Source: Candidatus Daviesbacteria bacterium (lineage in GTDB: Bacteria > Patescibacteriota > Microgenomatia > Daviesbacterales > UBA10151). From it: DNA of 64,000 bases. How positions within the stretch are numbered: position 1 is the first letter of the stretch; the number at the start of each line of letters is the position of its first letter. The DNA lies in contig JACOXD010000010.1 of assembly GCA_016176465.1 (NCBI GenBank), positions 7,497-71,496 on the forward strand, written 5' to 3'. A program made the translations under genes and the position numbers. The notes beneath the pieces were generated by a model, which was not told the DNA's origin, ran no database searches, and saw only the letters and a program-made list of their open reading frames with translations. Positions 48,319 through 63,557 of this stretch are shown here, piece by piece.

Positions 48319-48377
48319 ACTCTTAGCTAGTAATCAGGTACCTTCTTTGATAAAATTTACATAGCTAAATTAACATT

Positions 48378-48446
48378 GCGGGATCGTCTAACGGCAGGAC
48401 AACGGACTCTGAATCCGTTTATCTAGGTTCAAATCCTAGTCCCGCA
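48378..48446 (+). tRNA. tRNA-Gln (anticodon CUG), no encoded CCA
   Basis: Acceptor GCGGGAU/GUCCCGC, anticodon stem ACGGA/UCCGU with loop CUCUGAA, T-arm GGUUCAAAUCC. Confidence 0.7.
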
Positions 48447-48496
48447 GCACGAAGAGTTAGCGGGGTGCTAAGGGTCCAAGGTTAGCCTAGCAGTCT

Positions 48497-49028: not shown

Positions 49029-49307
49029 GTGTCTTACTCTGTCTATATTTTAAGAACTTCATCGAACACTTTATATATTGGGCAAACCAATAATTTAGAA
49101 AAAAGAATTAAAGAGCATAAAAATAAAAAAGGTAAGGGAGCAAAATATATTAGGTCTTTTTCCTCATTTGAATTAGTTTACTTTGAAAAACTCAAAACTA
49201 GATCTGAAGCAATGAAGAGAGAATGGCAACTAAAGGGATGGACAAAAGCCATGAAAGAGACTTTAATCAACTTGGGAAGCAAGTATTTATCCAAGTCCCG
49301 CAGCTAA
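49029..49307 (+). CDS. GIY-YIG nuclease superfamily protein (YhbQ/UPF0213-like)
   Basis: VYILRTSSNTLYIGQTNNLEKRIKEH GIY-YIG motif; 3' end formed by direct repeat. Confidence 0.7.
   Translation: MSYSVYILRTSSNTLYIGQTNNLEKRIKEHKNKKGKGAKYIRSFSSFELVYFEKLKTRSEAMKREWQLKGWTKAMKETLINLGSKYLSKSRS
49278..49305. repeat. Left 28-bp direct repeat AGCAAGTATTTATCCAAGTCCCGCAGCT (att-like, contains tRNA-Gln 3' motif)
   Basis: 27/28 identical to 63612-63639. Confidence 0.65.
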
Positions 49308-49323
49308 GTAAGATCAGGAAATA

Positions 49324-49371
49324 TTGACACTTTAACTTATTGGTATTAGTATATCCCTACTAGGGGGATAT
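49324..49371 (+). promoter_or_regulatory. Promoter TTGACA-17-TAGTAT followed by palindrome ATATCCC-N7-GGGATAT (CsoR-type operator)
   Basis: Read directly, 20 nt upstream of csoR start. Confidence 0.55.
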
Positions 49372-49390
49372 CCTCCAAAGGCGGACAAGT

Positions 49391-49663
49391 ATGGCATATA
49401 GACCAAAAGATACTCAAGAAAGAATTGTTCATAGGTTAAAAATAGCTAAAGGTCATTTAGAAAAGGTTATCAAGATGGTTGAGGATGACTGCTACTGCAT
49501 TGATGTTCTCCACCAATCTCAAGCTGTTCAAAAAGCATTAAGAGAAACAGATAACCTCATGCTAGAAAATCATCTTAAAACTTGCGCTATGGATGCCATA
49601 GGTAAAGGTAGAAAAGAAGAAGCAGTTGCTGAAGTGATCCAGGTATTTAAGAAAATGTCTTAA
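49391..49663 (+). CDS. csoR: Copper-sensing transcriptional repressor CsoR/RcnR family
   Basis: 90 aa; RL.RI.GH...V.KM.ED..YC.DVL.Q..AV..AL helix pattern with conserved Cys/His. Confidence 0.8.
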   Translation: MAYRPKDTQERIVHRLKIAKGHLEKVIKMVEDDCYCIDVLHQSQAVQKALRETDNLMLENHLKTCAMDAIGKGRKEEAVAEVIQVFKKMS

Positions 49664-52736: not shown

Positions 52737-53324
52737 ATGAAAGCATTACCTTCAAAGTTTATTTTAACAAAAAAACCTAAGGAATATTTAAAACAAGGGC
52801 TAACTCATTGTGGTGCTTACTCTGTAAAAGCTATTATAGAAGCATTTGATAAAGACTACAAAAAAGATCCAAGAGATTATCACACTTTTTGGTTAAATAG
52901 ATTAATAGGTACAGGGCTATGGAGATCTTATTATGTGGATATATTAAAATCATTTGATTTAAACGCAAAAGCCAAAGAAGCTAAGAGTCTAACAGACAAA
53001 GAACATTTAGATTTACTTAAGCAATTATTATCCACTAATAATCCTGTGATGATCTATGTTGGGAATGGTTATACAAAAACTGGTGAATACAATAAGCTGC
53101 GAGCAGCACTAGTTGGTCATTGGGTCACTCTTTGGGGTTATTCTGATTCAGAACAAGTATTTTATGTATATGATTCTGCTGCCCCAAAAAAGTTATACGA
53201 TAATGTTCCAGTCGGTAATAAAAAAAGAACTTATGAGCAAATATTAAGAGATTGGAAGGGTGCAAAAATTACTAAATTTATTTGGCCCTGGGAATATTTC
53301 TATATAGAAGTAAAAAATCAATGA
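52737..53324 (+). CDS. Papain-like (C39-like/BtrH-like) cysteine peptidase domain protein
   Basis: Candidate catalytic Cys in LTHCGAYSV and His in GHWVTLWGY; weak. Confidence 0.4.
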   Translation: MKALPSKFILTKKPKEYLKQGLTHCGAYSVKAIIEAFDKDYKKDPRDYHTFWLNRLIGTGLWRSYYVDILKSFDLNAKAKEAKSLTDKEHLDLLKQLLSTNNPVMIYVGNGYTKTGEYNKLRAALVGHWVTLWGYSDSEQVFYVYDSAAPKKLYDNVPVGNKKRTYEQILRDWKGAKITKFIWPWEYFYIEVKNQ

Positions 53325-53602
53325 AAAAACATTTCTTACTATTTTTTCTAGATGATTTTCATCAAGGGGCTATGAATCATTTAATACATTTTGTGGGTTT
53401 CACAGTTTTAGGATACGGATTAGGAAAACCAAGTTTATTTTTAATAATACTCTCTCCTTTTATAATGGAATCAGGACATATTTATAATTATTTAACTGGA
53501 AGACATAAAGAGCTAGCTATAAAAATAATTCCTTTACAGCTTTTAGCATGGGTTATATTTGTAGGCATCGGCTATTTAATTGCTAATTTTTTTGGATACT
53601 AA
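53321..53602 (+). CDS. Small His-rich membrane protein (3 TM)
   Basis: ATG overlapping upstream stop (ATGA); His clusters HQGAMNHLIHF, ESGHIYNY. Confidence 0.4.
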   Translation: MKKHFLLFFLDDFHQGAMNHLIHFVGFTVLGYGLGKPSLFLIILSPFIMESGHIYNYLTGRHKELAIKIIPLQLLAWVIFVGIGYLIANFFGY

Positions 53603-53834: not shown

Positions 53835-53873
53835 TTTGACATCTGAATGCAGGGATACTACACTTAGTAGTAG
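53835..53873 (+). promoter_or_regulatory. Promoter TTGACA-17-TACTAC with operator palindrome TACTAC-ACTTA-GTAGTA (copy 1)
   Basis: Same palindrome at 58048 and 61442, each ending at a start codon. Confidence 0.55.
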
Positions 53874-53894
53874 ATATTAGAACGAACCAATAAA

Positions 53895-54941
53895 ATGAAC
53901 AAAATACTAATTCTTATAGTTCTATTAATCGTATCAGCAGCAGGGATATTTTTGTATATAAATAGATTTCAAAAACCAGTTGAAGTCTCTCAAGAGGTCT
54001 TGAATAAACTTAATGAAAATAAACCTACTCTTTCCCAAGATGAGGATAGGTTTTTAAATCTGCTTGAGCAAAACGCAGTCTCAGGTGGTCCTCCAAAAGA
54101 TGGCATCCCCGCCATAGATAAACCTCAATATACAACTGCTGCTGAAGCTGATTCTTGGCTTTTACCAAATGATGTTGTTTTTGGAATAGATTACCAAGGT
54201 TTTGTTGCAGCATACCCTCAAAGGATTTTAGTTTGGCATGAAATATTAAATGATCAAATAAACAGACAAAAGGTATCTATTAGTTATTGTCCTCTAACTG
54301 GCACTGCCATTGGTTTTGAGGCTTCAGTAACTAAAGATCTAGATTCATCCTTTGGAGCATCAGGAAAGTTGGTTAACTCTAATTTAATTATGTATGACAG
54401 AATTAGTGATTCCTACTGGCCTCAAATTTTAGGTAAAGCCATTAATGGTCCAGCTAAGGGGAGGAATTTGCAAGAGTTTCCAGTAGTTTGGACAACATGG
54501 GATAAATGGAAAACAAAGTTTCCAGAAACAAAAGTACTTTCTAAAAATACTGGATTTGTTCGTAACTATGATGTTAATGGTGATCCCTATGGATCATATC
54601 TTAGAGAAGATAAAGGATATTATGCTTCTGACAGGCTAATTTTTGAACCGATAAATAAGCAAAGCTTTTCTTCGAATAAGGATGATCGTTTAAAACCGAA
54701 AACAGTAGTAGTGGGAATTCGTGATAAGGATGGTAATGCTGTAGCAATTTTGAAAGATTCTCTGCGCCAACAAAAGAAAATGGAAGTTTCTTTAGGAGAT
54801 AAAGTGGTGGTAGTTGATTATGATCAAAGCCTAGATTTTTACCAAGCATCTGTAAAAGATACAAAAGAAGCGATTAATGCTTTTGATGCTATGTGGTTTG
54901 CCTGGGTAGCATTCTATCCCAATACTAAGTTAATAGAATAA
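53895..54941 (+). CDS. DUF3179 domain protein
   Basis: N-terminal TM; conserved SYCPLTGT block. Confidence 0.55.
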   Translation: MNKILILIVLLIVSAAGIFLYINRFQKPVEVSQEVLNKLNENKPTLSQDEDRFLNLLEQNAVSGGPPKDGIPAIDKPQYTTAAEADSWLLPNDVVFGIDYQGFVAAYPQRILVWHEILNDQINRQKVSISYCPLTGTAIGFEASVTKDLDSSFGASGKLVNSNLIMYDRISDSYWPQILGKAINGPAKGRNLQEFPVVWTTWDKWKTKFPETKVLSKNTGFVRNYDVNGDPYGSYLREDKGYYASDRLIFEPINKQSFSSNKDDRLKPKTVVVGIRDKDGNAVAILKDSLRQQKKMEVSLGDKVVVVDYDQSLDFYQASVKDTKEAINAFDAMWFAWVAFYPNTKLIE

Positions 54942-54942
54942 A

Positions 54943-55506
54943 ATGTTAGCGTTATTTTTATCAATAATTACACAGAGAAAATTTTTCTTAGTAGCCTTGA
55001 TTGTTTTTGTGGTATATATTCTAATTTATTTAGCTGCAGTAGGACATTTGATCTTCACATCCCGCATGGAGCCAGCTTATTCATTTTTAGAAGTAAAATT
55101 CTTGACAAACTGGCAACAACTTCTACTGCGACAAAGGTCACCTTTTTTGTTTGAAGCAATTGGGGCAATCTATATAGGTCCCAATATCAAACTATTTCTC
55201 TCAATTCCTAACTTGATACTTGCTTCAGTGTTAGGATTTCTTGTCGGATCTAACTTTGCCTTAAGTTATTATAACTTTAAGAGATTAGGGTTATCAGGTG
55301 GAAAAGGAGCAGTTGCACTTTTGGGAACCATTCCGGCTATTGTTTCGGGAAGTGTTTGTTGTGTTCCTACTCTGATTCTGGTGCTAGGATTACAATTAAC
55401 AGCTACTTTAGCCACAGCGTGGTCTTTTTTTATTCCACTTTCAATAATCCTGCTTATTTTAAGTCTAGTATGGTCTGTAAAAAGAATTGAAACTGGAAGA
55501 TTGTGA
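54943..55506 (+). CDS. Membrane protein with MerT-like intramembrane Cys-Cys motif (GSVCCVPTLILVLG)
   Basis: 4-5 TM; CC pair in TM resembling MerT TM1 (TCCLGPLVL). Confidence 0.4.
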   Translation: MLALFLSIITQRKFFLVALIVFVVYILIYLAAVGHLIFTSRMEPAYSFLEVKFLTNWQQLLLRQRSPFLFEAIGAIYIGPNIKLFLSIPNLILASVLGFLVGSNFALSYYNFKRLGLSGGKGAVALLGTIPAIVSGSVCCVPTLILVLGLQLTATLATAWSFFIPLSIILLILSLVWSVKRIETGRL

Positions 55507-55522
55507 GGGGAGGTGAAGAATA

Positions 55523-55771
55523 ATGGCAAAAGTAAAAGTTTATTCAATAACAACGTGTCCATATTGTCATATGCTCAAAGAATATTTAAAGGAGAAGAAT
55601 GTAGCTTTTGAAGATATAGTTCTTGACTACAGTCCCGATAAGGCAGTCGAGGCTATTCACATATGTCAGTCAATGGGTGTCCCTTGCACACATATCGTAA
55701 AGGACGATGGAAAGGAAGTTGCCATCTTGGGATTTGACAAAGAAGCAATAGATCGCGCACTCGGACTGTAA
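55523..55771 (+). CDS. Glutaredoxin/NrdH-like redoxin (CPYC)
   Basis: 82 aa; VYSITTCPYCHMLKEYL. Confidence 0.75.
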   Translation: MAKVKVYSITTCPYCHMLKEYLKEKNVAFEDIVLDYSPDKAVEAIHICQSMGVPCTHIVKDDGKEVAILGFDKEAIDRALGL

Positions 55772-55804
55772 TGGAGGGAGGTGCAAAAGGTTATTAATAA
55801 AAAC

Positions 55805-57193
55805 ATGAATAACAAATATGATGTTATTGTAATTGGGGGAGGATCGGCAGGGTTTTCTGTTTTGGAGCAGATTGCCCATAAAGGCTTAAAGATTGCCCTG
55901 GTGGAAAATAGAAAATTGGGAGGATCTTGTCCTAATTTTGCCTGTGTACCCTCTAAAGCTTTAATCAAATGTGCTGAAGTTCTACACACAGCTTTGAATG
56001 CTGATAAATTTGGTATAAATGTTTCTAATATAGGATTTGACTGGAAAAGAGTACAAGAATTTAGAGCAGGTAAGGTAGCTAATACTGCTGCTGCAGAGTC
56101 TGAACAAGATTTAAAAGAAAAAGAGGTTGATCTTATTTGGGGCACTGCCAAGTTTATTTCAGCTTCTGAGATTGAAGTAGATGGGAAGATTTATTCAGCT
56201 GATAAGTTTGCCATTACCACCGGCTCAAGGCCTTTGGTTTTACCAATTGATGGTTTGGAAGAGATTGGTTTTTTAGATTCTGATCAAGGTCTGCAAATAG
56301 ATAAATTGCCTAAATCCTTAACTATACTAGGTGCTGGGCCTGTGGGAATTGAAATAGCTCAGATGTTTGCCAGATTTGGGGTCAAAGTAGCAGTGATCAA
56401 TAGAGGTGGACAGATACTTGGTAGAGAAGAACCAGAAGTGGCAAATCTCGTTCAGGGATTTTTAGAAAAAGAGGGAGTGGAGTTTTTATTAAATGCTCAA
56501 GTTAAAAAAGTGATGCTTCAGCGTCATCCTGAGCGCAGCGAAGGATCTCAAAATCTGAAGCTACTGGAGATAGAAGTCAGTGGGCAGAAAGGAACAATGG
56601 AAGTGGAGCAAATTCTGGTTGCTCCAGGTAGGATTCCCAATATTGACATGCTTGATCTTAAAAAAGCTGGAGTGAAAACTTATGAGAGAGGAATTGTGGT
56701 TGATGAGTACATGCAGACCTCACAGCCTCACATCTATTCTGCTGGAGATGTGGCAGGAATCATGCTTTTTACCCATGCAGCATCTTATGAGGGCTTTATT
56801 ATTGGACAAAACCTCTTGGGCAACAAAATGGAGGTAGATCATAAGGTGATACCAAGAGGAACGTTTTCTGATCCGGAGGTAGGTAGCGTGGGAATAATGG
56901 AAAAAGAGGCCAGGGACAAGGGTTTGAAAGTACAAACTGCTTTGATGGATTATACAGGAGGGAGAGGAGATATCCAGGATGACCCCCTAGGATTAACTAA
57001 GGTGACTGTTGATGCTAAAACCAGACAAATCCTTGGGGCATCAGTAGTGGGTAGAGGCGCTGCTGAGTTTGTGCATATGATAGCCATGGCCATGCATCAT
57101 AAAATTAAAGTTGATGATTTAGATACTCTTGTTTATGCCTTTCCCACTTATGCAGAAGGGTTAGCTGGAATTACTTCCTATCTTAAGGATTAG
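55805..57193 (+). CDS. Class I pyridine nucleotide-disulfide oxidoreductase (MerA/Lpd-like; lacks NmerA and C-terminal Cys pair)
   Basis: GGGSAGF, redox CxxxxC GGSCPNFACVPSK, HPxE-type dimer interface; ATG 55805 preferred over GTG 55781; carries in-frame repeat at 56514-56559. Confidence 0.8.
   Translation: MNNKYDVIVIGGGSAGFSVLEQIAHKGLKIALVENRKLGGSCPNFACVPSKALIKCAEVLHTALNADKFGINVSNIGFDWKRVQEFRAGKVANTAAAESEQDLKEKEVDLIWGTAKFISASEIEVDGKIYSADKFAITTGSRPLVLPIDGLEEIGFLDSDQGLQIDKLPKSLTILGAGPVGIEIAQMFARFGVKVAVINRGGQILGREEPEVANLVQGFLEKEGVEFLLNAQVKKVMLQRHPERSEGSQNLKLLEIEVSGQKGTMEVEQILVAPGRIPNIDMLDLKKAGVKTYERGIVVDEYMQTSQPHIYSAGDVAGIMLFTHAASYEGFIIGQNLLGNKMEVDHKVIPRGTFSDPEVGSVGIMEKEARDKGLKVQTALMDYTGGRGDIQDDPLGLTKVTVDAKTRQILGASVVGRGAAEFVHMIAMAMHHKIKVDDLDTLVYAFPTYAEGLAGITSYLKD
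56514..56559. repeat. In-frame repeat GCTTCAG-CGTCATCCTGAGCGCAGCGAAGGATCTCAAAAT-CTGAAGC encoding QRHPERSEGSQNLK
   Basis: Flanked by 7-bp inverted repeat; homologous to copA insert at 52128. Confidence 0.6.
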
Positions 57194-57196
57194 CAT

Positions 57197-57730
57197 ATGT
57201 ACAATCAACAAAAACTTTTAAAATTCAGAAAGCAAAAAGACGAAGCTTGGAAAGAAGATGCCCAGTCTCCCTTAGCTGAGGAGCAAAAGCGAAGCTTTAA
57301 AGGTCTAAATTATTTTCCTCCTAATCCTGATTTTAGTTTTGAACTAGAGTTAAATAAAAATATCCCTGGTGTGGGTGAGAGAGTAGTAATTAAAACAACG
57401 GGTGGGGATGAGCAGGTCTATTTAAGAGCTGGAAGGGTCAAGTTCAATGTTGAGGGTAAAGAGGTAGAGGCATTAGTGTTTGAAGATCCAGAGCAAGAAC
57501 AGTTTCAATATTATTTATTATTTAGAGACCAAACAACAGGAAAGGAAACTTATGAAAATGGCAGAATGTTACAAATCCCTAAAAAAGGAGATAAGTTAGT
57601 AATCGATTTTAATTATGCATATAATCCCTATAGCTCATATAATAACAATTGGGATTGTCCAATTACCCCTCAAGAAAATATCTTACCTTTGGCAATTCAG
57701 GCTGGAGAAAAGATTTTTAAGAACTTATGA
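57197..57730 (+). CDS. DUF1684 domain protein
   Basis: Pattern F.GL.YFPP...F; WDCPITP motif. Confidence 0.5.
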   Translation: MYNQQKLLKFRKQKDEAWKEDAQSPLAEEQKRSFKGLNYFPPNPDFSFELELNKNIPGVGERVVIKTTGGDEQVYLRAGRVKFNVEGKEVEALVFEDPEQEQFQYYLLFRDQTTGKETYENGRMLQIPKKGDKLVIDFNYAYNPYSSYNNNWDCPITPQENILPLAIQAGEKIFKNL

Positions 57731-57772
57731 ATGTTGTGTATAAAATTCTGCCTGGAAGGGGGTGATAGCTTA

Positions 57773-58000
57773 ATGAAGAAACTTCTTATAGGAGGGGTTG
57801 CAGCTGCAATAATGTATGCAAGCATGGTAGTACCTGTTTTTGCTGATGGGCCAACTAGTCCCAATGTTAGTCCAGTTGTTGTTCCCTTAGCTCAGACAGG
57901 AACTTTTGGTCAAACTGTTTGTAGCGTTCTTGGCCAGGCTAATCTTGAGAATAATGTGGTTTTAACAGTACAGGGGCATGACCCCTCTCACATTAACTGA
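57773..58000 (+). CDS. Small secreted protein (signal peptide)
   Basis: MKKLLIGGVAAAIMYASMVVPVFA signal; SD GGAAGGGGGTGA. Confidence 0.4.
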   Translation: MKKLLIGGVAAAIMYASMVVPVFADGPTSPNVSPVVVPLAQTGTFGQTVCSVLGQANLENNVVLTVQGHDPSHIN

Positions 58001-58047
58001 AGTGGTCTACTTCCTAAAAATAAACAGTTGCTTTATTAAAAACTTAG

Positions 58048-58067
58048 TACTACACTAAGTAGTAGTA
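58048..58067 (+). promoter_or_regulatory. Operator palindrome TACTAC-ACTAA-GTAGTA (copy 2) ending 2 nt before blaI-like start
   Basis: Read directly; nested larger palindrome ACTTAGT...ACTAAGT. Confidence 0.55.
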
Positions 58068-58069
58068 AT

Positions 58070-58462
58070 ATGGAAAAACAGCAAAAGGTTGGTAAAGTGT
58101 TAGGTGAGTTAGAATCAGAAGTGATGGAGATAATTTGGCAATCTAAAATGCCAATTTCTGTAAGAACTGTTACTCAAATCTTGCAAACAAAGCGCCAGAT
58201 TGCTTATACAACAGTCATGACCATTATGGGGAGATTAACTGATAAAGGTTTGCTTAAGCGTACAGAATCTGGTAAAGCATATATTTACAGATCAGTCTAT
58301 TCAAAAGAAAAGTTTCTTACCAGAGTATCCCGCCAGATTATTAAAAATTTTGTTGCTAATTTTGGTGACGGCGCAGTAGCTCATTTTGCAGCGGAAGTGG
58401 AAAAACTAGAACCTTCTAAGAGGAAAGACTTAACTAAATTATTAAAGGAGGTAAGAAAATAG
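58070..58462 (+). CDS. BlaI/MecI/CopY family winged-helix repressor (no C-terminal metal-binding Cys motif)
   Basis: LGELESEVMEIIW....VR.V..IL...R.IAYTTVMT...RL..KGLL. Confidence 0.8.
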   Translation: MEKQQKVGKVLGELESEVMEIIWQSKMPISVRTVTQILQTKRQIAYTTVMTIMGRLTDKGLLKRTESGKAYIYRSVYSKEKFLTRVSRQIIKNFVANFGDGAVAHFAAEVEKLEPSKRKDLTKLLKEVRK

Positions 58463-58463
58463 C

Positions 58464-59477
58464 ATGGGTGCTAACAAAGCCTTCTGCATGCTCCTACTCT
58501 CTTTTGTTGTTGCTTTAGTTGGTTTGGGTACTGTGTTTTTTAAAACAGTTCCGCTCCTTCTTTCTCATGCAGTTTATGTTTGCCAAGAGACTTTCTCTAA
58601 TATTCTTTTTGGCATCTCGCATTCTGTTCCTCTTGTTCTAATTACTTTAGTAATCATGGTTTTACTTATTGGTCTTGTAACTTTATTGATACAAGTTTTA
58701 AAAACTAGAAATTATCTTAAGAAGCATATGAGAGAAAGAGTACCCATCCCCTCTAGTTTGATAGAAATAACCAAAGAACTTGGCTTAAATGATAGCGTTG
58801 ATGTTGTTAAAGATAGAAGTAAATTTTCTTTCTGTTATGGATTGATTCACCCTAGAATTTGTTTAAGTACAGGTCTTTTAAGATCATTAAATACAAGAGA
58901 ACTTAAAGCAGTGATACTTCATGAGAGTTACCATGTTAAAAATCGGGATCCACTTAAAATAATCCTTGGCAAAACAGCATCTTTAATGTTCTTCTTTATT
59001 CCATTGCTAAAAGATATTCAAAACTTCTATGCTTTATCAAAAGAGATAGCTGCAGATAAACTTGTGGTCGGTAATGGATATAGACATTCCCTAATTTCCG
59101 TTCTTTCAAAGCTTTTAGTGGCTGGCTCATCTAAATTCAGTGGCGTAGCAGCACTAGCTAGTTTAGATGATTTAGAAAGAAGGATACTGTTGCTCACAGG
59201 TAATCAGAAAAGATCAATATTTAAACCCTCACTGCTCAACATATCAATGTCGGCTTTTGTAGTTTTGTTTTCCCTGGCACTTATGAATACCCCAGCTTAT
59301 GCAGTTTCTGATCATGAAGGGTCTATGGAAAGCTCAATGTTTACTGCGAAGCAGGAAGTTTACTTCATTTGTCCTTTTGGGGATAAATGTGCGCTGTCTT
59401 GCAAGGCAAAGGAAGAGGAGGGTGGAAATTACAGTCAAGACTTAATGTATACACCGATGCATTACACACCAAAATGA
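58464..59477 (+). CDS. BlaR1-like M56 family membrane metalloprotease lacking penicillin-binding sensor domain; Cys-rich C-terminal tail
   Basis: HEXXH HESYHVKNRD; 4 TM; C-terminal CPFGDKCALSC. Confidence 0.7.
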   Translation: MGANKAFCMLLLSFVVALVGLGTVFFKTVPLLLSHAVYVCQETFSNILFGISHSVPLVLITLVIMVLLIGLVTLLIQVLKTRNYLKKHMRERVPIPSSLIEITKELGLNDSVDVVKDRSKFSFCYGLIHPRICLSTGLLRSLNTRELKAVILHESYHVKNRDPLKIILGKTASLMFFFIPLLKDIQNFYALSKEIAADKLVVGNGYRHSLISVLSKLLVAGSSKFSGVAALASLDDLERRILLLTGNQKRSIFKPSLLNISMSAFVVLFSLALMNTPAYAVSDHEGSMESSMFTAKQEVYFICPFGDKCALSCKAKEEEGGNYSQDLMYTPMHYTPK

Positions 59478-60442
59478 ACAGTAAATTAGTTTATATCATA
59501 GTTGCGGTTTTGCTTTTAGGAGGAGTAGTTTTCTTTGCTCAAAAACAAGCGGGTGCTCCGAAACTTAAATCTGAAACAGCACAAAGCTTACCTGCAACAA
59601 CGCAAGAAGAATCTGTTAGGGAAAATTCAACTTATGGTCATGTACACGCTTTAATTTCTAATCCTCAAGATAACAGCCTATTGTTGGGTACTCATGAAGG
59701 TTTGTTTAAGAGTGCAGATGGAGGGAAAACTTTTCAGAAAGTGGGTGTTAAAGGTGAAGTTAATGCAATGGATTTCATGAACTTTGCGTATGACCAGAAT
59801 AATAAAATCATTTATGCTGGTGGACATGATTTGGGAGTTGTTAAAAGCACTGATGGTGGAGTAACTTGGGCAAAAACAGATTCAGGGATTCAAGGTACGG
59901 ATATTCATGCTTTGGCTATGAACCCCCTTGATACTAACAGGTTATATGTTTTCTCAGTAGGTAATGGAGTTTATGGAACTAAAGATGGGGCAAAAAGTTG
60001 GTATAGAATTGATGATGGACCAGCGAACCCATCTGTAGTAGCTTTTGGATATATGGCAACTCCCTCAAGTATGGACCGCGGTATGAAAACTGATAAAACT
60101 ACTAATATTGGCTACCTTTGGGCAGGAACTGGAGGAGGGTTATATAGCTCATTTGCTTGTTTCTGTGGCTGGACTAAAACATCAGGTGTAACAGATAGAG
60201 CCACTATTTATACACTTGCTCCTGATCCAATAGACAAAAGTAGTATGCTTGCAGGAACCAAAGATGGTATTTACAAAACGACTGATGAGGGGAGAAATTT
60301 TACTAAGATAAGTGATATTAAAGACATTGCTGCCCTTAATTTTAATACATCTAATCCTAAAACAATTTATGCTGCTACTGCCGATGGTGCGATTTATAGA
60401 AGTGATGATGAAGGTAAGAATTGGAGTAAAGTGAATGAATAA
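59474..60442 (+). CDS. Ycf48-like/BNR-repeat beta-propeller protein, membrane-anchored
   Basis: Repeated S.DGG.TW / T.DG..W blades; ATG overlaps upstream stop (ATGA). Confidence 0.55.
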   Translation: MNSKLVYIIVAVLLLGGVVFFAQKQAGAPKLKSETAQSLPATTQEESVRENSTYGHVHALISNPQDNSLLLGTHEGLFKSADGGKTFQKVGVKGEVNAMDFMNFAYDQNNKIIYAGGHDLGVVKSTDGGVTWAKTDSGIQGTDIHALAMNPLDTNRLYVFSVGNGVYGTKDGAKSWYRIDDGPANPSVVAFGYMATPSSMDRGMKTDKTTNIGYLWAGTGGGLYSSFACFCGWTKTSGVTDRATIYTLAPDPIDKSSMLAGTKDGIYKTTDEGRNFTKISDIKDIAALNFNTSNPKTIYAATADGAIYRSDDEGKNWSKVNE

Positions 60443-60671
60443 GCAAAGCTTGTCTTTTGCTGTCGCAAAACGTAAGTTTTTTAACAGCTGTAGGCGCTGT
60501 TTAAACCCCTGGATAATTGCCTTAATTACTGTTGTAGTGGTTGGATTATTAATTTTTCTTCCTATTTTAGGAGTAGCAACTTTGATAGCAGCTCTTCCTC
60601 TGGTAGGTTGTACTGTAATGTGTGGTGCAATGGCTCTTATGATGCGGGATCACAAAAAAGATAAAAGTTAA
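60435..60671 (+). CDS. Small membrane protein with intramembrane Cys cluster (GCTVMCG)
   Basis: ORF, 2 TM. Confidence 0.4.
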   Translation: MNKQSLSFAVAKRKFFNSCRRCLNPWIIALITVVVVGLLIFLPILGVATLIAALPLVGCTVMCGAMALMMRDHKKDKS

Positions 60672-60673
60672 GT

Positions 60674-61414
60674 ATGAGATTGATTTTCCTGCCCATTGTT
60701 GTATTTATTATCTTAGCTGTAACGCTTTTATCGCAAAATTTATTTCCAAAAAATACACTCGAGTCAACTATTGCAAATTGGAATGATGGAACAGATGCTT
60801 TTTATCAGCAGGTTTTAAAAAGTGATGGTGATTGGGTAGATCATGCAGGTGAGGCAGTTTTTGATAACTATCCTGTAAAAAGTATTTCAAAGCTGGAAAC
60901 AGAAAATATTTTGGCACAAGCAAGGCAGCCACAACCACCAGTTTTGGGACTGCATACTGCACCTGACGGAGCAGAAAAATGGATTGAGATAGACCTATCT
61001 AATCTTAAACTTTATGCTTGGGAAGGAAACCGCAAAGTTTATGAATTTTTAATATCAACAGGCCGTCCTGGCTATAACACCCCTACAGGTGAGTTTAGGG
61101 TTTGGAGAAAGGTACTATCACAAGCCTATAAAGGCGGCTCAAGAGAAAGGGGCGATTACTACTACTTACCTAATGTTCCCTTCTCTTTATTTTTCGGTGG
61201 CGGAAATGTTTCTAACTGGAAAGGTTATGCTATCCATGGAGCATATTGGCACAGTGACTTTGGTATAAAAAACAGGAGTAGTGGGTGTGTAAATGTGAAA
61301 CCTGAAGAAGCAGGACTTTTGTACCAATGGGCTGGTCCTGCTATGCCTGCTGGGACAGGAGTTTTAAATTCAACTCCTGATAACCCTGGTGTAAGAGTAA
61401 TCGTACATGATTAA
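60674..61414 (+). CDS. L,D-transpeptidase (YkuD domain)
   Basis: YAIHGAYWHSDFG...SSGCVNV catalytic His/Cys motif. Confidence 0.75.
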   Translation: MRLIFLPIVVFIILAVTLLSQNLFPKNTLESTIANWNDGTDAFYQQVLKSDGDWVDHAGEAVFDNYPVKSISKLETENILAQARQPQPPVLGLHTAPDGAEKWIEIDLSNLKLYAWEGNRKVYEFLISTGRPGYNTPTGEFRVWRKVLSQAYKGGSRERGDYYYLPNVPFSLFFGGGNVSNWKGYAIHGAYWHSDFGIKNRSSGCVNVKPEEAGLLYQWAGPAMPAGTGVLNSTPDNPGVRVIVHD

Positions 61415-61421
61415 TTTCCCC

Positions 61422-61461
61422 TTGACAAGTTAAAGTTTATCTACTACAGTAAGTAGTAGTA
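61422..61461 (+). promoter_or_regulatory. Promoter TTGACA-17-TACAGT with operator palindrome TACTAC-AGTAA-GTAGTA (copy 3) abutting start codon
   Basis: Read directly. Confidence 0.55.
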
Positions 61462-62231
61462 TGGATAAACAGTCAGGTATTCGAATCAACCTTTTTATTT
61501 CAACCCCAATAGCTATTTTAATTGGGTCTGTGATAATCGCTTTAGCTATTCTGGTAAATGGTGGAATCATCAAATTTAAAGGATCAGTTGCTACTAAATC
61601 ACCAACTACTCAAGCAGCTCAAGCTCCAACTGCAACAGCCCCACAAGCTCCCCAACCAGAACCTCAAGCTGGCCCTGTAGAACCCCTAAAAGATGAAGAT
61701 CATGTCAGGGGTGAAAGAAAAGCTAGGATTTTACTTTTTGAATACTCAGATTTAGAGTGTCCCTTCTGTAAAAGATTTCATCCCACTGCTAAACAAATAG
61801 TAGATACCTACAAAGGAGAAGTGGCTTGGGTATATAGGCATTTTCCTTTGGATCAAATCCATTCTAAAGCAGATAAAGAAGCAGAGGCTATAGAGTGTGC
61901 AAATGAGTTGGGTGGTGAAGATGGGTTTTGGAAGATGACAGACAAGATATTTGAGGTAACACCTTCTAATAATGGTTTAAATTTGGAAGATCTGCCAAAA
62001 CTGGCAGGGGAAGTAGGGCTAAATCAAGCTACATTTAAGTCATGTTTAGATAGTGGTAAATACACAGCTCATGTAGAAGAGGATTATCAGGGTGGAATAA
62101 AAGCTGGTATTACAGGTACACCTGGCAATATTCTACTTGATACTAAACTCAATAAGACTAAATTAATACCTGGTGCACTACCCTTTGAGCAATTTAAACA
62201 AGCAATAGATGCTATGCTTAAGGAAGCATAA
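61461..62231 (+). CDS. DsbA-family thiol:disulfide oxidoreductase (CPFC), membrane-anchored
   Basis: FEYSDLECPFCKRFH thioredoxin-fold active site. Confidence 0.75.
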   Translation: MDKQSGIRINLFISTPIAILIGSVIIALAILVNGGIIKFKGSVATKSPTTQAAQAPTATAPQAPQPEPQAGPVEPLKDEDHVRGERKARILLFEYSDLECPFCKRFHPTAKQIVDTYKGEVAWVYRHFPLDQIHSKADKEAEAIECANELGGEDGFWKMTDKIFEVTPSNNGLNLEDLPKLAGEVGLNQATFKSCLDSGKYTAHVEEDYQGGIKAGITGTPGNILLDTKLNKTKLIPGALPFEQFKQAIDAMLKEA

Positions 62232-62234
62232 CAA

Positions 62235-63275
62235 ATGGATCTTTGGTTAATATTTCTAACTGGTTTAACTGTTGGTGGACTTACCTGTCTAGCTGTGCAG
62301 GGGGGTCTTCTCGCCTCTACTATTGCTGCAAGGGAAGAGGAAGATATAGACGCAGGAAGCAGAAGAAAACATACTATATTCCCCACTGCAGCCTTTTTAA
62401 CTACTAAGCTTATTGCCTATACGATTTTAGGCTTTCTTTTAGGACTATTCGGACAAACCCTACAGATCTCTGGTAGTGCTCAAACTGTGATGCAGCTTCT
62501 AGCTGGAGGATACATGATAGCTGTGGCACTAAATCTTCTTAATGTTCACCCAATATTCAGATACGCCATTATTCAACCCCCAAGATTTTTAACCAGATTA
62601 ATTAGAAATCAAACTAAATCTAAAGATATTTTTGCTCCAGCCTTGCTTGGTGTTATGACCATCTTTATTCCTTGTGGAACAACTCTAGCTATGGAAGCAT
62701 TAGCAATCTCTTCAGGTAAACCATTTCTCGGCTCAATGATTATGGGAGCATTTACTTTAGGCACTATGCCACTATTTTTTGGTATTGGGTTCTTAACTTC
62801 TTTGCTGGGGGATACTTTCAGAGCCAAATTTTTCAAAATAGCAGGAGTTTTGGTGTTATATCTAGGTATTATCTCATTTAATGGGGCACTAGTTGCTAGC
62901 GGTTCTCCTATTACTTTACAGTCAATTGGACAAGCTTTACCAATTGAGATTGATTTATCTGGAGGGCAAGCTGCAGCATCTGCTGATTCAAATGTAAAAC
63001 TCGTTGGTGGAGTTCAAACTGTCGATATGTCTGTTTTCCCCACCAGCTATAGTCCAAACTACATTCAGGTAAAAGCAGGCACTCCTGTTAGGTTGAATTT
63101 AACTCCATCAGGTGGTTTAGGATGTACTTCATTTTTTAGAATTCCAAAACTGAGAATTACTAAAAAATTGGCTCAAGGCGCAACTGAAACTGTTGAGTTT
63201 ACCCCTCAAAGTCCTGGAAGATTAACCTTTACCTGTTCAATGGGAATGTATACAGGGACAATAGAGGTTATATAA
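62235..63275 (+). CDS. DsbD/CcdA-like (DsbD_2) membrane protein with intramembrane Cys pair fused to C-terminal cupredoxin-like domain
   Basis: TM Cys in GGLTCLAVQGG and FIPCGTTLA; C-terminal FTCSMGMYTGTIEVI. Confidence 0.55.
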   Translation: MDLWLIFLTGLTVGGLTCLAVQGGLLASTIAAREEEDIDAGSRRKHTIFPTAAFLTTKLIAYTILGFLLGLFGQTLQISGSAQTVMQLLAGGYMIAVALNLLNVHPIFRYAIIQPPRFLTRLIRNQTKSKDIFAPALLGVMTIFIPCGTTLAMEALAISSGKPFLGSMIMGAFTLGTMPLFFGIGFLTSLLGDTFRAKFFKIAGVLVLYLGIISFNGALVASGSPITLQSIGQALPIEIDLSGGQAAASADSNVKLVGGVQTVDMSVFPTSYSPNYIQVKAGTPVRLNLTPSGGLGCTSFFRIPKLRITKKLAQGATETVEFTPQSPGRLTFTCSMGMYTGTIEVI

Positions 63276-63320: not shown

Positions 63321-63557
63321 ATGAGTAAAATAGTAAAGAAAAAATTAAAGATTGATGGGATGCACTGCAGCAGCTGTGCCATGAATATAGAGTTTGATTT
63401 AGAGGATGTGGAAGGTATTAAATCGGCTAAAGCTAGCCTGGTAAAAGAGGAATGCGAAGTAGAATTTGATGAAGAAAAAGTTAATGAGCAAATGATTATC
63501 CAAACTATCCAGAAAACTGGGTACCAAGCAAGGTTACAAGAAGAGTCTAAGCAGTAA
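63321..63557 (+). CDS. copZ: Heavy-metal-associated (HMA) copper chaperone
   Basis: GMHCSSC motif, 78 aa ferredoxin-like. Confidence 0.8.
   Translation: MSKIVKKKLKIDGMHCSSCAMNIEFDLEDVEGIKSAKASLVKEECEVEFDEEKVNEQMIIQTIQKTGYQARLQEESKQ

Follow-up and report, generated by a model that had tools for sequence, protein, structure and literature searches.

Most annotated BlaR proteins are without a beta-lactam sensor, and the signals to which they respond are mostly unknown (PMC13492132). Non-canonical BlaIR systems have been described in M. tuberculosis, where the partner protease (Rv1845c) has no sensor domain (PMC13492132, bioRxiv 10.64898/2026.08.03.742534), in C. difficile (CenIR; PMC13492132), and in P. 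aeruginosa (PvmSR; bioRxiv 10.64898/2026.08.03.742534). In Synechocystis sp. PCC 6803, the cysteine-free BlaI-family repressor PetR is degraded in a copper- and PetP-dependent manner, PetP being an M48/M56 protease without a sensor; the PetR operator reads GACA-N3-TGTC (GACN5GTC), and the petRP mRNA is unchanged on copper addition (bioRxiv 10.1101/2020.07.31.226407). The box of the cop, bla, and mec systems is TACAxxTGTA (PMC5772342; for the cop box of CopY/CopR see also PMC11672702). For BlaI_0696 and BlaI_1845 of C. thermocellum, DNA affinity purification sequencing and electrophoretic mobility shift assays defined hexamer inverted repeats (GTCTAT) spaced 5 nt apart, small regulons, and autoregulation, with two dyads (four protomers) needed per target (PMC8457756). 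Here, we describe a 64-kb stretch of a Candidatus Daviesbacteria contig (JACOXD010000010.1; the whole stretch of 64,000 nt is referred to as the window), in which three copies of the palindrome TACTAC-N5-GTAGTA are embedded in the promoters of three gene units. Judged by sequence comparison, these boxes are probably the operators of a BlaI-type repressor acting in a PetR/PetP-like proteolytic switch for envelope copper or thiol stress.

The window contains three exact matches to TACTACNNNNNGTAGTA, all on the + strand. Operator O1 (TACTACACTTAGTAGTA, 53856..53872) overlaps the -10 hexamer and predicted start of its promoter and lies 22 nt upstream of the start codon of a DUF3179 gene (operon 1). 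Operator O2 (TACTACACTAAGTAGTA, 58048..58064) is found 5 nt ahead of the blaI ATG (operon 2), and operator O3 (TACTACAGTAAGTAGTA, 61442..61458) lies 2 nt ahead of the ATG of a dsbA-like gene (operon 3) in a leaderless-type layout. Not one exact match to the pattern was obtained in 100 dinucleotide-preserving shuffles of the window. The first-pass annotation of this DNA had reported three identical palindromes, and exactly three are present; its end coordinates run 1-3 nt too long. The half-sites are identical at all three boxes, and the 5-nt centres read ACTTA, ACTAA, and AGTAA. Apart from the -35 hexamer and the box, the flanks of the three sites show no relation to one another, so the sites do not belong to a copied or repeated cassette. 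The exact sites occupy the only three sizeable intergenic gaps in a tight 10-kb run of 17 + strand genes. Every exact site in the window is intergenic and overlaps a predicted -10 hexamer. When up to two mismatches were allowed, 7 extra sites appeared against 1.6 expected; all of them lie within coding regions, none ahead of a gene start and none with promoter context, and they look like chance matches. Degenerate boxes sought ahead of the csoR-cupredoxin-copA operon and across the window likewise gave just chance matches in coding regions.

The three promoters share one layout on the + strand. P1 (53836..53864) consists of a -35 TTGACA (53836-53841), a 17-nt spacer, and a -10 TACACT (53859-53864), with 10/12 matches in a consensus scan, and the same scan returned P3 (61422..61450) with TTGACA, a 17-nt spacer, and TACAGT. 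P2 (58028..58056; -35 TTGCTT at 58028-58033, 17-nt spacer, -10 TACACT at 58051-58056) was found by reading the sequence and was not reported by the scan itself; its placement equals that of P1, P3, and the promoters of orthologous blaI genes. The claim of a TTGACA at each -35 thus stands for the sites at 53856 and 61442 and fails at the blaI site. At all three promoters, the -10 hexamer (TACAnT) is formed by box positions 4-9, and the box overlaps both this hexamer and the predicted transcription start, just as had been proposed for the palindrome. These observations support the palindrome as an operator-type element embedded in promoters. Because the start codons of operons 2 and 3 follow only 5 and 2 nt past the box, their transcripts would be leaderless or nearly so.

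Operon 2 (58070-61414) begins with a gene for a BlaI/MecI/CopY-family winged-helix repressor of 130 aa (58070..58462, + strand), which was identified from its translation, its relatives in the PDB, and a match of residues 11-127 to Pfam PF03965 (Penicillinase_R; E 3.8e-28, 98.6 bits, cut-off 22.6). The repressor is 100% identical to a protein listed by NCBI under Candidatus Daviesbacteria, which places the window in the candidate phyla radiation (Patescibacteria). Its best PDB relative is 2G9W (E 5e-11), and 1SD4 and 1OKR are further relatives. 2G9W was deposited as a 'conserved hypothetical protein', and we take it to be M. tuberculosis BlaI (Rv1846c); the stretch AYTTVM, presumably the recognition helix, is identical in both proteins. 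The operator of M. tuberculosis BlaI is said to be a TAC-N-AC/GT-N-GTA dyad. The repressor of the window contains no cysteine and hence no CxCx4CxC/CxC metal site, and it scores 58.7 bits against the CopY_TcrY model TIGR02698 (cut-off 121.95). A CopY identity was rejected on these grounds, and the repressor cannot sense copper in the manner of CopY. The scissile bond N101-F102 of S. aureus BlaI aligns to H105-F106, where F106 is invariant among the orthologues and position 105 is H in most and N in two.

To follow the box beyond the window, 80 genomic loci taken from an alignment of BlaI homologues were scanned for exact matches (records are cited by their L numbers where they have to be told apart). 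Exact boxes were present in 14 of them (24 sites), with BlaI identities of 38-71% and with 8 of the 10 nearest homologues included; the other 66 loci (~1.1 Mb), which carry only distant homologues, contained none. The exact box lies 2-6 nt ahead of the blaI ATG in L001-L004, L008, and L084 and further upstream in L010 (44 nt from the BlaI match) and L026, and boxes with one mismatch precede blaI in L005, L006, and L014 (2-6 nt) and in L032 (further upstream). Kerfeldbacteria and other Patescibacteria (L017, L028, L035, L056) show the form TGCTACA-N3-TGTAGTA. Altogether, the box is conserved directly upstream of blaI orthologues at about 20 independent loci, with TACTACA-yTA-WGTAGTA as the pooled consensus. 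Conservation of the centre is accounted for by the -10 hexamer embedded there, which does not explain that of the outer bases. Near-identical boxes (YACTACA-N3-TGTAGTR) are found ahead of blaI in Paenibacillus, Cohnella, Bacillus, and Brevibacillus, and a Chloroflexi version reads CCTTACA-N3-TGTAAGA. On these comparisons, the box type is a trait of a large BlaI subfamily and not an invention of this island. Since the box tracks BlaI similarity and precedes blaI orthologues, the BlaI-family protein encoded at 58070-58462 is by far the best candidate for its binder, in agreement with the BlaI/CopY-family repressor named in the first-pass annotation.

A second box in the BlaI-anchored loci precedes dsbA...dsbD::cupredoxin-copZ or dsbB-dsbA-P1B-ATPase-ykuD, or else it stands ahead of DUF3105-SurA-like-dsbA, HlyD-RND, or PCYCGC-cusC-cusB(HMBD)-cusA. 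In the Paenibacillus, Cohnella, Bacillus, and Brevibacillus loci, the dyad YACTACA/YACTATA-N3-TGTAGTG lies 38-95 nt upstream of blaI-blaR (L027, L031, L033, L041, L048, L049, L052, L054, L061, L064, L066-L068, L072, L079), and no copper genes are found nearby; these are probably related switches that use the same box type for other signals and targets. As to the origin of the compared records, several of the closest ones (L001, L004-L006, L008, L009, L032, L037, and L075) are titled 'uncultured Gammaproteobacteria bacterium' (TPA_asm metagenome-assembled genomes). Over the part sampled, from blaI to dsbA, L001 agrees with the Daviesbacteria contig L002 in its box contexts and tblastn results, and at least L001, and probably some of the other records with this title, look taxonomically mislabelled.

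A census that did not use BlaI as anchor was made by scanning a metagenome collection for TTGACA-N14-TACTACA-N3-WGTAGTA (20 specified bases). It yielded at least 120 stretches (L085-L204) with promoter and box and 111 listed sites with a downstream open reading frame (ORF), although the contigs may include near-duplicates and the counts are not those of independent events. Many of the matches come from groundwater rich in candidate phyla radiation bacteria, for example at the Hainich or Rifle sites. The commonest first gene after the box among the matches listed encodes a DsbA-like protein (34 sites), followed by DsbD::cupredoxin (21), BlaI (10), DUF3105 (3), and the BNR propeller (2), and one of these families occurs within the first four genes at 84 of the 111. 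Other first genes among the listed matches encode DUF305, a CsoR-like repressor, thioredoxin-like proteins, and Cys-rich proteins with PCCG...DCNH, and a P1B ATPase and CopZ follow after 17 and 9 listed sites, respectively. These counts bear out the earlier proposal that the regulon would couple thiol-redox, metal-handling, and cell-wall genes. Box-to-start-codon distances show a bimodal distribution, with -1 to 7 nt in 57 listed sites and mostly 14-34 nt in the others. At 27 of the 111 (e.g., L088, L102, L103), the final base of the box, an A, also serves as the first base of the ATG, which is then located 7 nt past the -10 hexamer, the spacing expected of a leaderless mRNA. Operator, promoter, and predicted leaderless start codon are at these 27 sites fused in one element of ~20 bp.

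The second gene of operon 2 encodes a BlaR1-like M56 zinc metalloprotease of 337 aa (58464..59477, + strand; Pfam PF05569 and PF01435, alignments, hydropathy), which scores 60 bits against PF05569 (cut-off 31). Residues H153, E154, H157, E194, and D198, which make up the HExxH motif and the downstream E...D, are invariant in 25 aligned sequences. The NCBIfam BlaR1 models score only 30-34 bits against cut-offs of 400-1200; no match to a penicillin-binding or transpeptidase sensor domain was found in the protein, which extends ~60 residues past its last membrane helix. Strong helices are predicted from hydropathy at residues 7-25, 58-76, and 256-274, with a basic stretch after the second, and from this layout segment 27-57 and the C-terminal tail would face outwards. 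Catalytic residues aside, the best conserved positions, all in these outer parts, are C40 (21/25), H53 (17/25), and C313 (20/25) of the tail motif C303-x5-C309-x3-C313, in which C303 and C309 are present in about half of the sequences.

From the sites, their promoter context, and their conservation together with BlaI and the target genes, we infer binding by BlaI, proteolytic release, and a signal as follows. A repressor dimer would bind TACTACA-N3-WGTAGTA and cover the -10 TACAnT and the transcription start; since both lie within the box, its occupancy by the repressor would block RNA polymerase at all three of the promoters. The units under its control would be an autoregulated one (blaI, the blaR-like protease, a BNR propeller, a small membrane protein, and an L,D-transpeptidase), a second one (dsbA-like, dsbD::cupredoxin, and copZ), and, in this genome only, a third (DUF3179, a membrane protein with a CC motif, glutaredoxin, disulfide reductase, DUF1684, and a small protein). 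The M56 protease (58464-59477), once activated by an extracytoplasmic signal, would cut the repressor in its dimerisation domain (H105-F106), as in BlaI/BlaR1 and PetR/PetP. That signal would most probably be envelope copper (Cu/Ag) or the resulting thiol damage, perceived by way of conserved cysteines and histidines of the outer loop and the C-terminal tail. Cytoplasmic Cu(I) would be handled apart by the adjacent CsoR-controlled cupredoxin-copA operon.

In operon 3, which lies on the + strand as do operons 1 and 2, O3 is followed by genes for a membrane-anchored DsbA-like thioredoxin-fold protein (61461..62231; Pfam PF13462, PF01323), a fusion of a DsbD_2 (CcdA-like) membrane domain with a cupredoxin-like one (62235..63275; PF13386, PF13473), and a CopZ-like HMA metallochaperone (63321..63557; PF00403). 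The stretch from the -35 hexamer through O3 (ttgacaagttaaagtttatc plus operator) is identical in L001 and L002, and L081 and L082 differ from it by one base in the operator centre. Downstream of the protease gene, operon 2 encodes a membrane-anchored BNR/sortilin-type beta-propeller protein (59387..60442; Pfam), whose listed ORF shares the last 91 nt of the blaR-like gene (59387-59477), the real start probably being an internal, later codon. The propeller gene has its own operator in L128 and L146 and a box with one mismatch in L012. It is followed by a gene for a small single-pass membrane protein of 78 aa (60435..60671; hydropathy), which stands after the propeller gene in L128 and L146 too, and by one for a YkuD-type L,D-transpeptidase with an N-terminal anchor (60674..61414; PF03734), which is also found after blaR in L001, L002, and L081.

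Operon 1 (53895-58000) opens with a DUF3179 protein with an N-terminal membrane anchor (53895..54941; PF11376, E 1e-85; hydropathy), followed by a 187-aa polytopic membrane protein that carries a VCCVP motif within one hydrophobic helix (54943..55506; translation, hydropathy), a glutaredoxin-like protein (55523..55771; PF00462; TIGR02196 YruB-type, under cut-off), an FAD pyridine-nucleotide disulfide oxidoreductase of MerA/RclA-like type with a CPNFAC active site (55781..57193; Pfam, translation), a DUF1684 protein (57197..57730; PF07920, E 1e-39), and a small 89-aa protein that has a single hydrophobic segment (57731..58000; ORF list, hydropathy). Pfam and NCBIfam uphold the gene identities assigned before, apart from the 'MerT-like' label of the 187-aa protein, for which neither database gave a match. 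In L002, L003, and L154, homologues of DUF3179, the reductase, and DUF1684 adjoin the regulon but are not preceded by a separate box, and on this comparison the DUF3179 operon is a lineage-specific recruit to the regulon. Unannotated membrane proteins with paired cysteines in a helix were observed in two forms, namely the VCCVP protein of the window and 484-497-aa proteins with GCSVCS and PCCGNSTAFPDCNHG, the latter encoded directly behind the box on several metagenome contigs (L089 1378-2833; a 497-aa ORF in L085). They may constitute a new metal- or thiol-handling family.

Upstream of operon 1, a CsoR-family repressor gene (49391..49663; PF02583, E 1e-22) heads the cupredoxin-copA operon. 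Its promoter (TTGACA-17-TAGTAT, 49324-49352) is overlapped at the -10 by an inverted repeat, AGTATATCCC-N7-GGGATATCCT (49348-49374), which is unlike the operator box. By family assignment, the island holds two different regulators beside copper-handling genes, one of CsoR and one of BlaI type, and the order csoR-copA / blaIR / dsb operon is also found in L083 and L084. In L094 (6551-6824, reverse-complemented), L130, and L190, the box stands ahead of a first gene of 90-91 aa followed by dsbD::cupredoxin, and in L094 the product matches the CsoR family (PF02583). Such contigs suggest that a BlaI-type switch can in some cases sit above a CsoR-type sensor. Just upstream of the csoR-copA-blaIR-dsb cluster, a tRNA-Gln (48377-48448) and a GIY-YIG nuclease-family gene (49029-49307) are found, and the island may have its left edge here; the region does not stand out by its G+C content (0.33-0.40 versus 0.28-0.40 elsewhere). 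After copA come, at 52737-53602, a C39-like or BtrH_N-like peptidase (weak Pfam matches) and a 106-aa ORF, and a 48%-identical homologue lies upstream of blaI in L204 (11671-12252).

Copper is favoured as the signal because the regulon is dominated by copper-type genes across lineages and because copper specifically inhibits L,D-transpeptidases (PMC11390936) and catalyses the formation of non-native disulfides (PMC9302775). Both effects would explain why ykuD and dsb genes share a regulon with copZ. It is conceivable, and we offer it as a tentative proposal, that the sensor-less M56 protease is a new extracytoplasmic copper/thiol sensor, in which C40/H53 and the Cys-rich tail detect Cu(I) or copper-driven thiol oxidation, leading to destruction of the Cys-free BlaI. 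Besides the possible near-duplicates in the census, several points weigh against the proposed switch or its signal. The case for copper is built from gene content, much of which a thiol/disulfide, oxidant, or soft-metal (Ag, Hg, Cd) signal would fit, and the models that come closest to the disulfide reductase are of MerA type, with its score under their cut-off. The tail cysteines are down to one in some orthologues (L002-L005) and absent in a few. A box ahead of the DUF3179...DUF1684 operon is, among the genomes examined, confined to this one. A terminator scan revealed no convincing terminators between the three units, so that read-through could blur the three-promoter picture. Finally, the source organism is uncultivated, and the switch is predicted from sequence.

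The same repressor, operator, and protease could instead serve envelope thiol/disulfide (oxidative or electrophile) stress, with the outer cysteines of the protease acting as a disulfide redox switch. The commonest targets are indeed of Dsb type (DsbA-like first in 34 and DsbD-type in 21 listed sites), operon 1 encodes a glutaredoxin and a disulfide reductase, and C40 and C313 are, catalytic positions aside, the best conserved residues of the protease on its outer side. The recurrence of the cupredoxin fusion, CopZ, P1B ATPases, CusCBA, DUF305, PCYCGC, and YtkA-type proteins points to a metal and not to a generic oxidant, and we regard a pure thiol signal as rather unlikely; since copper causes disulfide stress, the two readings overlap.

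A signal from mercury or other soft metals (Hg, Cd, Ag), with operon 1 as a mer-like detoxification unit, is very improbable. The reductase does score best against the MerA model TIGR02053 (381 bits), and upstream of it is encoded the membrane protein in which a CC pair lies within a helix. However, the score is below the cut-off of 454, and the reductase, which ends in ...GITSYLKD, has no C-terminal Cys pair and no HMA/NmerA domain (translation, Pfam), for which reasons a MerA identity for 55781-57193 was rejected. In addition, no MerR, MerP, or MerB was seen, and operon 1 lies outside the regulon in the other genomes examined, where the copper-type genes are inside it.

There is even less reason to believe that the palindrome is bound by another factor, or is a mere promoter or structural element, and that its association with blaI is incidental. 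Binding of the box by BlaI is predicted from sequence only, and the embedded -10 explains part of the conservation, yet the outer half-site bases (TAC...GTA), which lie outside the -10, are equally conserved. Moreover, the box follows BlaI similarity across loci and precedes blaI in many lineages, as would be expected of an autoregulated repressor, and csoR, the only other regulator gene found in 48.5-64 kb, has its own, different inverted repeat. A resemblance was noted to the footprinted motif of TrcR from Anabaena, ATACTACACTTGTATTAC, which with its -10 TACACT resembles the left half of the box and the embedded -10 (PMC10272220). TrcR is a ribbon-helix-helix repressor, of a family unrelated to that of BlaI, and is described as confined to cyanobacteria and some of their phages (PMC10272220); no ribbon-helix-helix gene was seen among the Pfam-scanned genes of the island, so TrcR was rejected as binder and the likeness is probably a coincidence. 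A classical beta-lactam or cell-wall-damage BlaI/BlaR1 system over a beta-lactam-insensitive L,D-transpeptidase, as the family names and the ykuD gene within the blaIR operon might suggest, has practically nothing to recommend it, given a protease that ends ~60 residues past its last helix with no transpeptidase or penicillin-binding domain and regulon members listed among which no beta-lactamase or PBP2a-type gene occurs.

A literature search returned no description of this regulon, nor of BlaIR systems in Patescibacteria, in line with the expectation that it is probably uncharacterised. As far as the literature searched shows, it is among the very few transcriptional regulons of the candidate phyla radiation that can be reconstructed confidently. 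With a sharp operator, a coherent regulon, and candidate ligand residues, the question of the signal of sensor-less BlaR proteins becomes open to direct testing in one large branch. In uncultivated bacteria, the 17-bp box offers a means of annotating copper/thiol stress genes, including families of unknown function such as DUF3179, DUF1684, DUF3105, and the BNR propeller with its small partner, and for the candidate phyla radiation the locus points to leaderless mRNAs and to operators embedded in promoters. If the proposed sensor function of the protease were true, one large branch of 'orphan' BlaIR systems would gain a concrete signal, Patescibacteria would, together with CsoR, sense copper in two compartments (envelope versus cytoplasm), and their promoters would merge operator, -10, and leaderless start codon in an element of 17-20 bp.

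Compared with CopY/CopR, the system shares the repressor family and a copper-related regulon (CopZ, P1B ATPase) but differs in the missing Cys metal motif, the box spacing, and the protease partner, the last of which implies that the signal is probably not bound by the repressor itself. With BlaI/BlaR1 and MecI/MecR1, known from Staphylococcus and Bacillus licheniformis, the system has in common neighbouring genes for a Penicillinase_R repressor and its M56 protease, autoregulation (predicted here), an F aligned to that of the N-F scissile bond, and a palindromic operator that contains TACA...GTA. In contrast to these systems, it lacks a penicillin-binding sensor, its predicted targets do not include beta-lactamase or PBP2a, and each promoter carries one dyad instead of two. 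The box had been said to be of neither cop, bla, nor mec type, which its extra spacer base confirms (TACA-N3-WGTA versus TACAxxTGTA). The 6-N5-6 or 7-N3-7 layout matches that reported for BlaI_0696 of C. thermocellum and for PetR; from the C. thermocellum operators the box differs in its half-site and in the single dyad per promoter. M. tuberculosis BlaI, CenIR, and PvmSR differ in their regulons, which concern ATP synthase/energy metabolism, an essential function, and virulence. In Proteobacteria, the Scs (suppressor of copper sensitivity) and DsbC/DsbD-type systems include DsbA/DsbG-like and DsbD-like proteins linked to copper, by which thiols mis-oxidised by copper in the envelope are repaired. 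By function, the copper-linked Dsb-type proteins of the regulon can be likened to Scs, from which it is set apart by a different regulator, a host in Patescibacteria, and the fusion of a DsbD-type domain to a cupredoxin-like domain.

Of the readings considered, a BlaI/BlaR1-type switch made up of repressor, operator, and protease has the best support, and among known systems PetR/PetP comes closest to it in function. To our knowledge, PetR/PetP is the only sensor-less BlaIR pair tied to copper. In both cases, a repressor without the CopY cysteines is found beside a sensor-less M48/M56 protease of similar size, and both proteases, whose architecture was compared by description only, have N-terminal membrane segments, their HExxH domain in the cytoplasm, and their last helix around residue 260. 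The A-N3-T core geometry of the operator is common to the two systems, whereas the half-site is TACTACA here and GACA in PetR. The candidate ligands are Cys and His together with a Cys-rich tail, as opposed to two Met in a loop of PetP, and the box is found on the blaI promoter itself, which contrasts with the constant petRP mRNA level on copper addition. Instead of switching between plastocyanin and cytochrome c6 in Synechocystis, the system described here would control copper resistance and envelope thiol repair in Patescibacteria.

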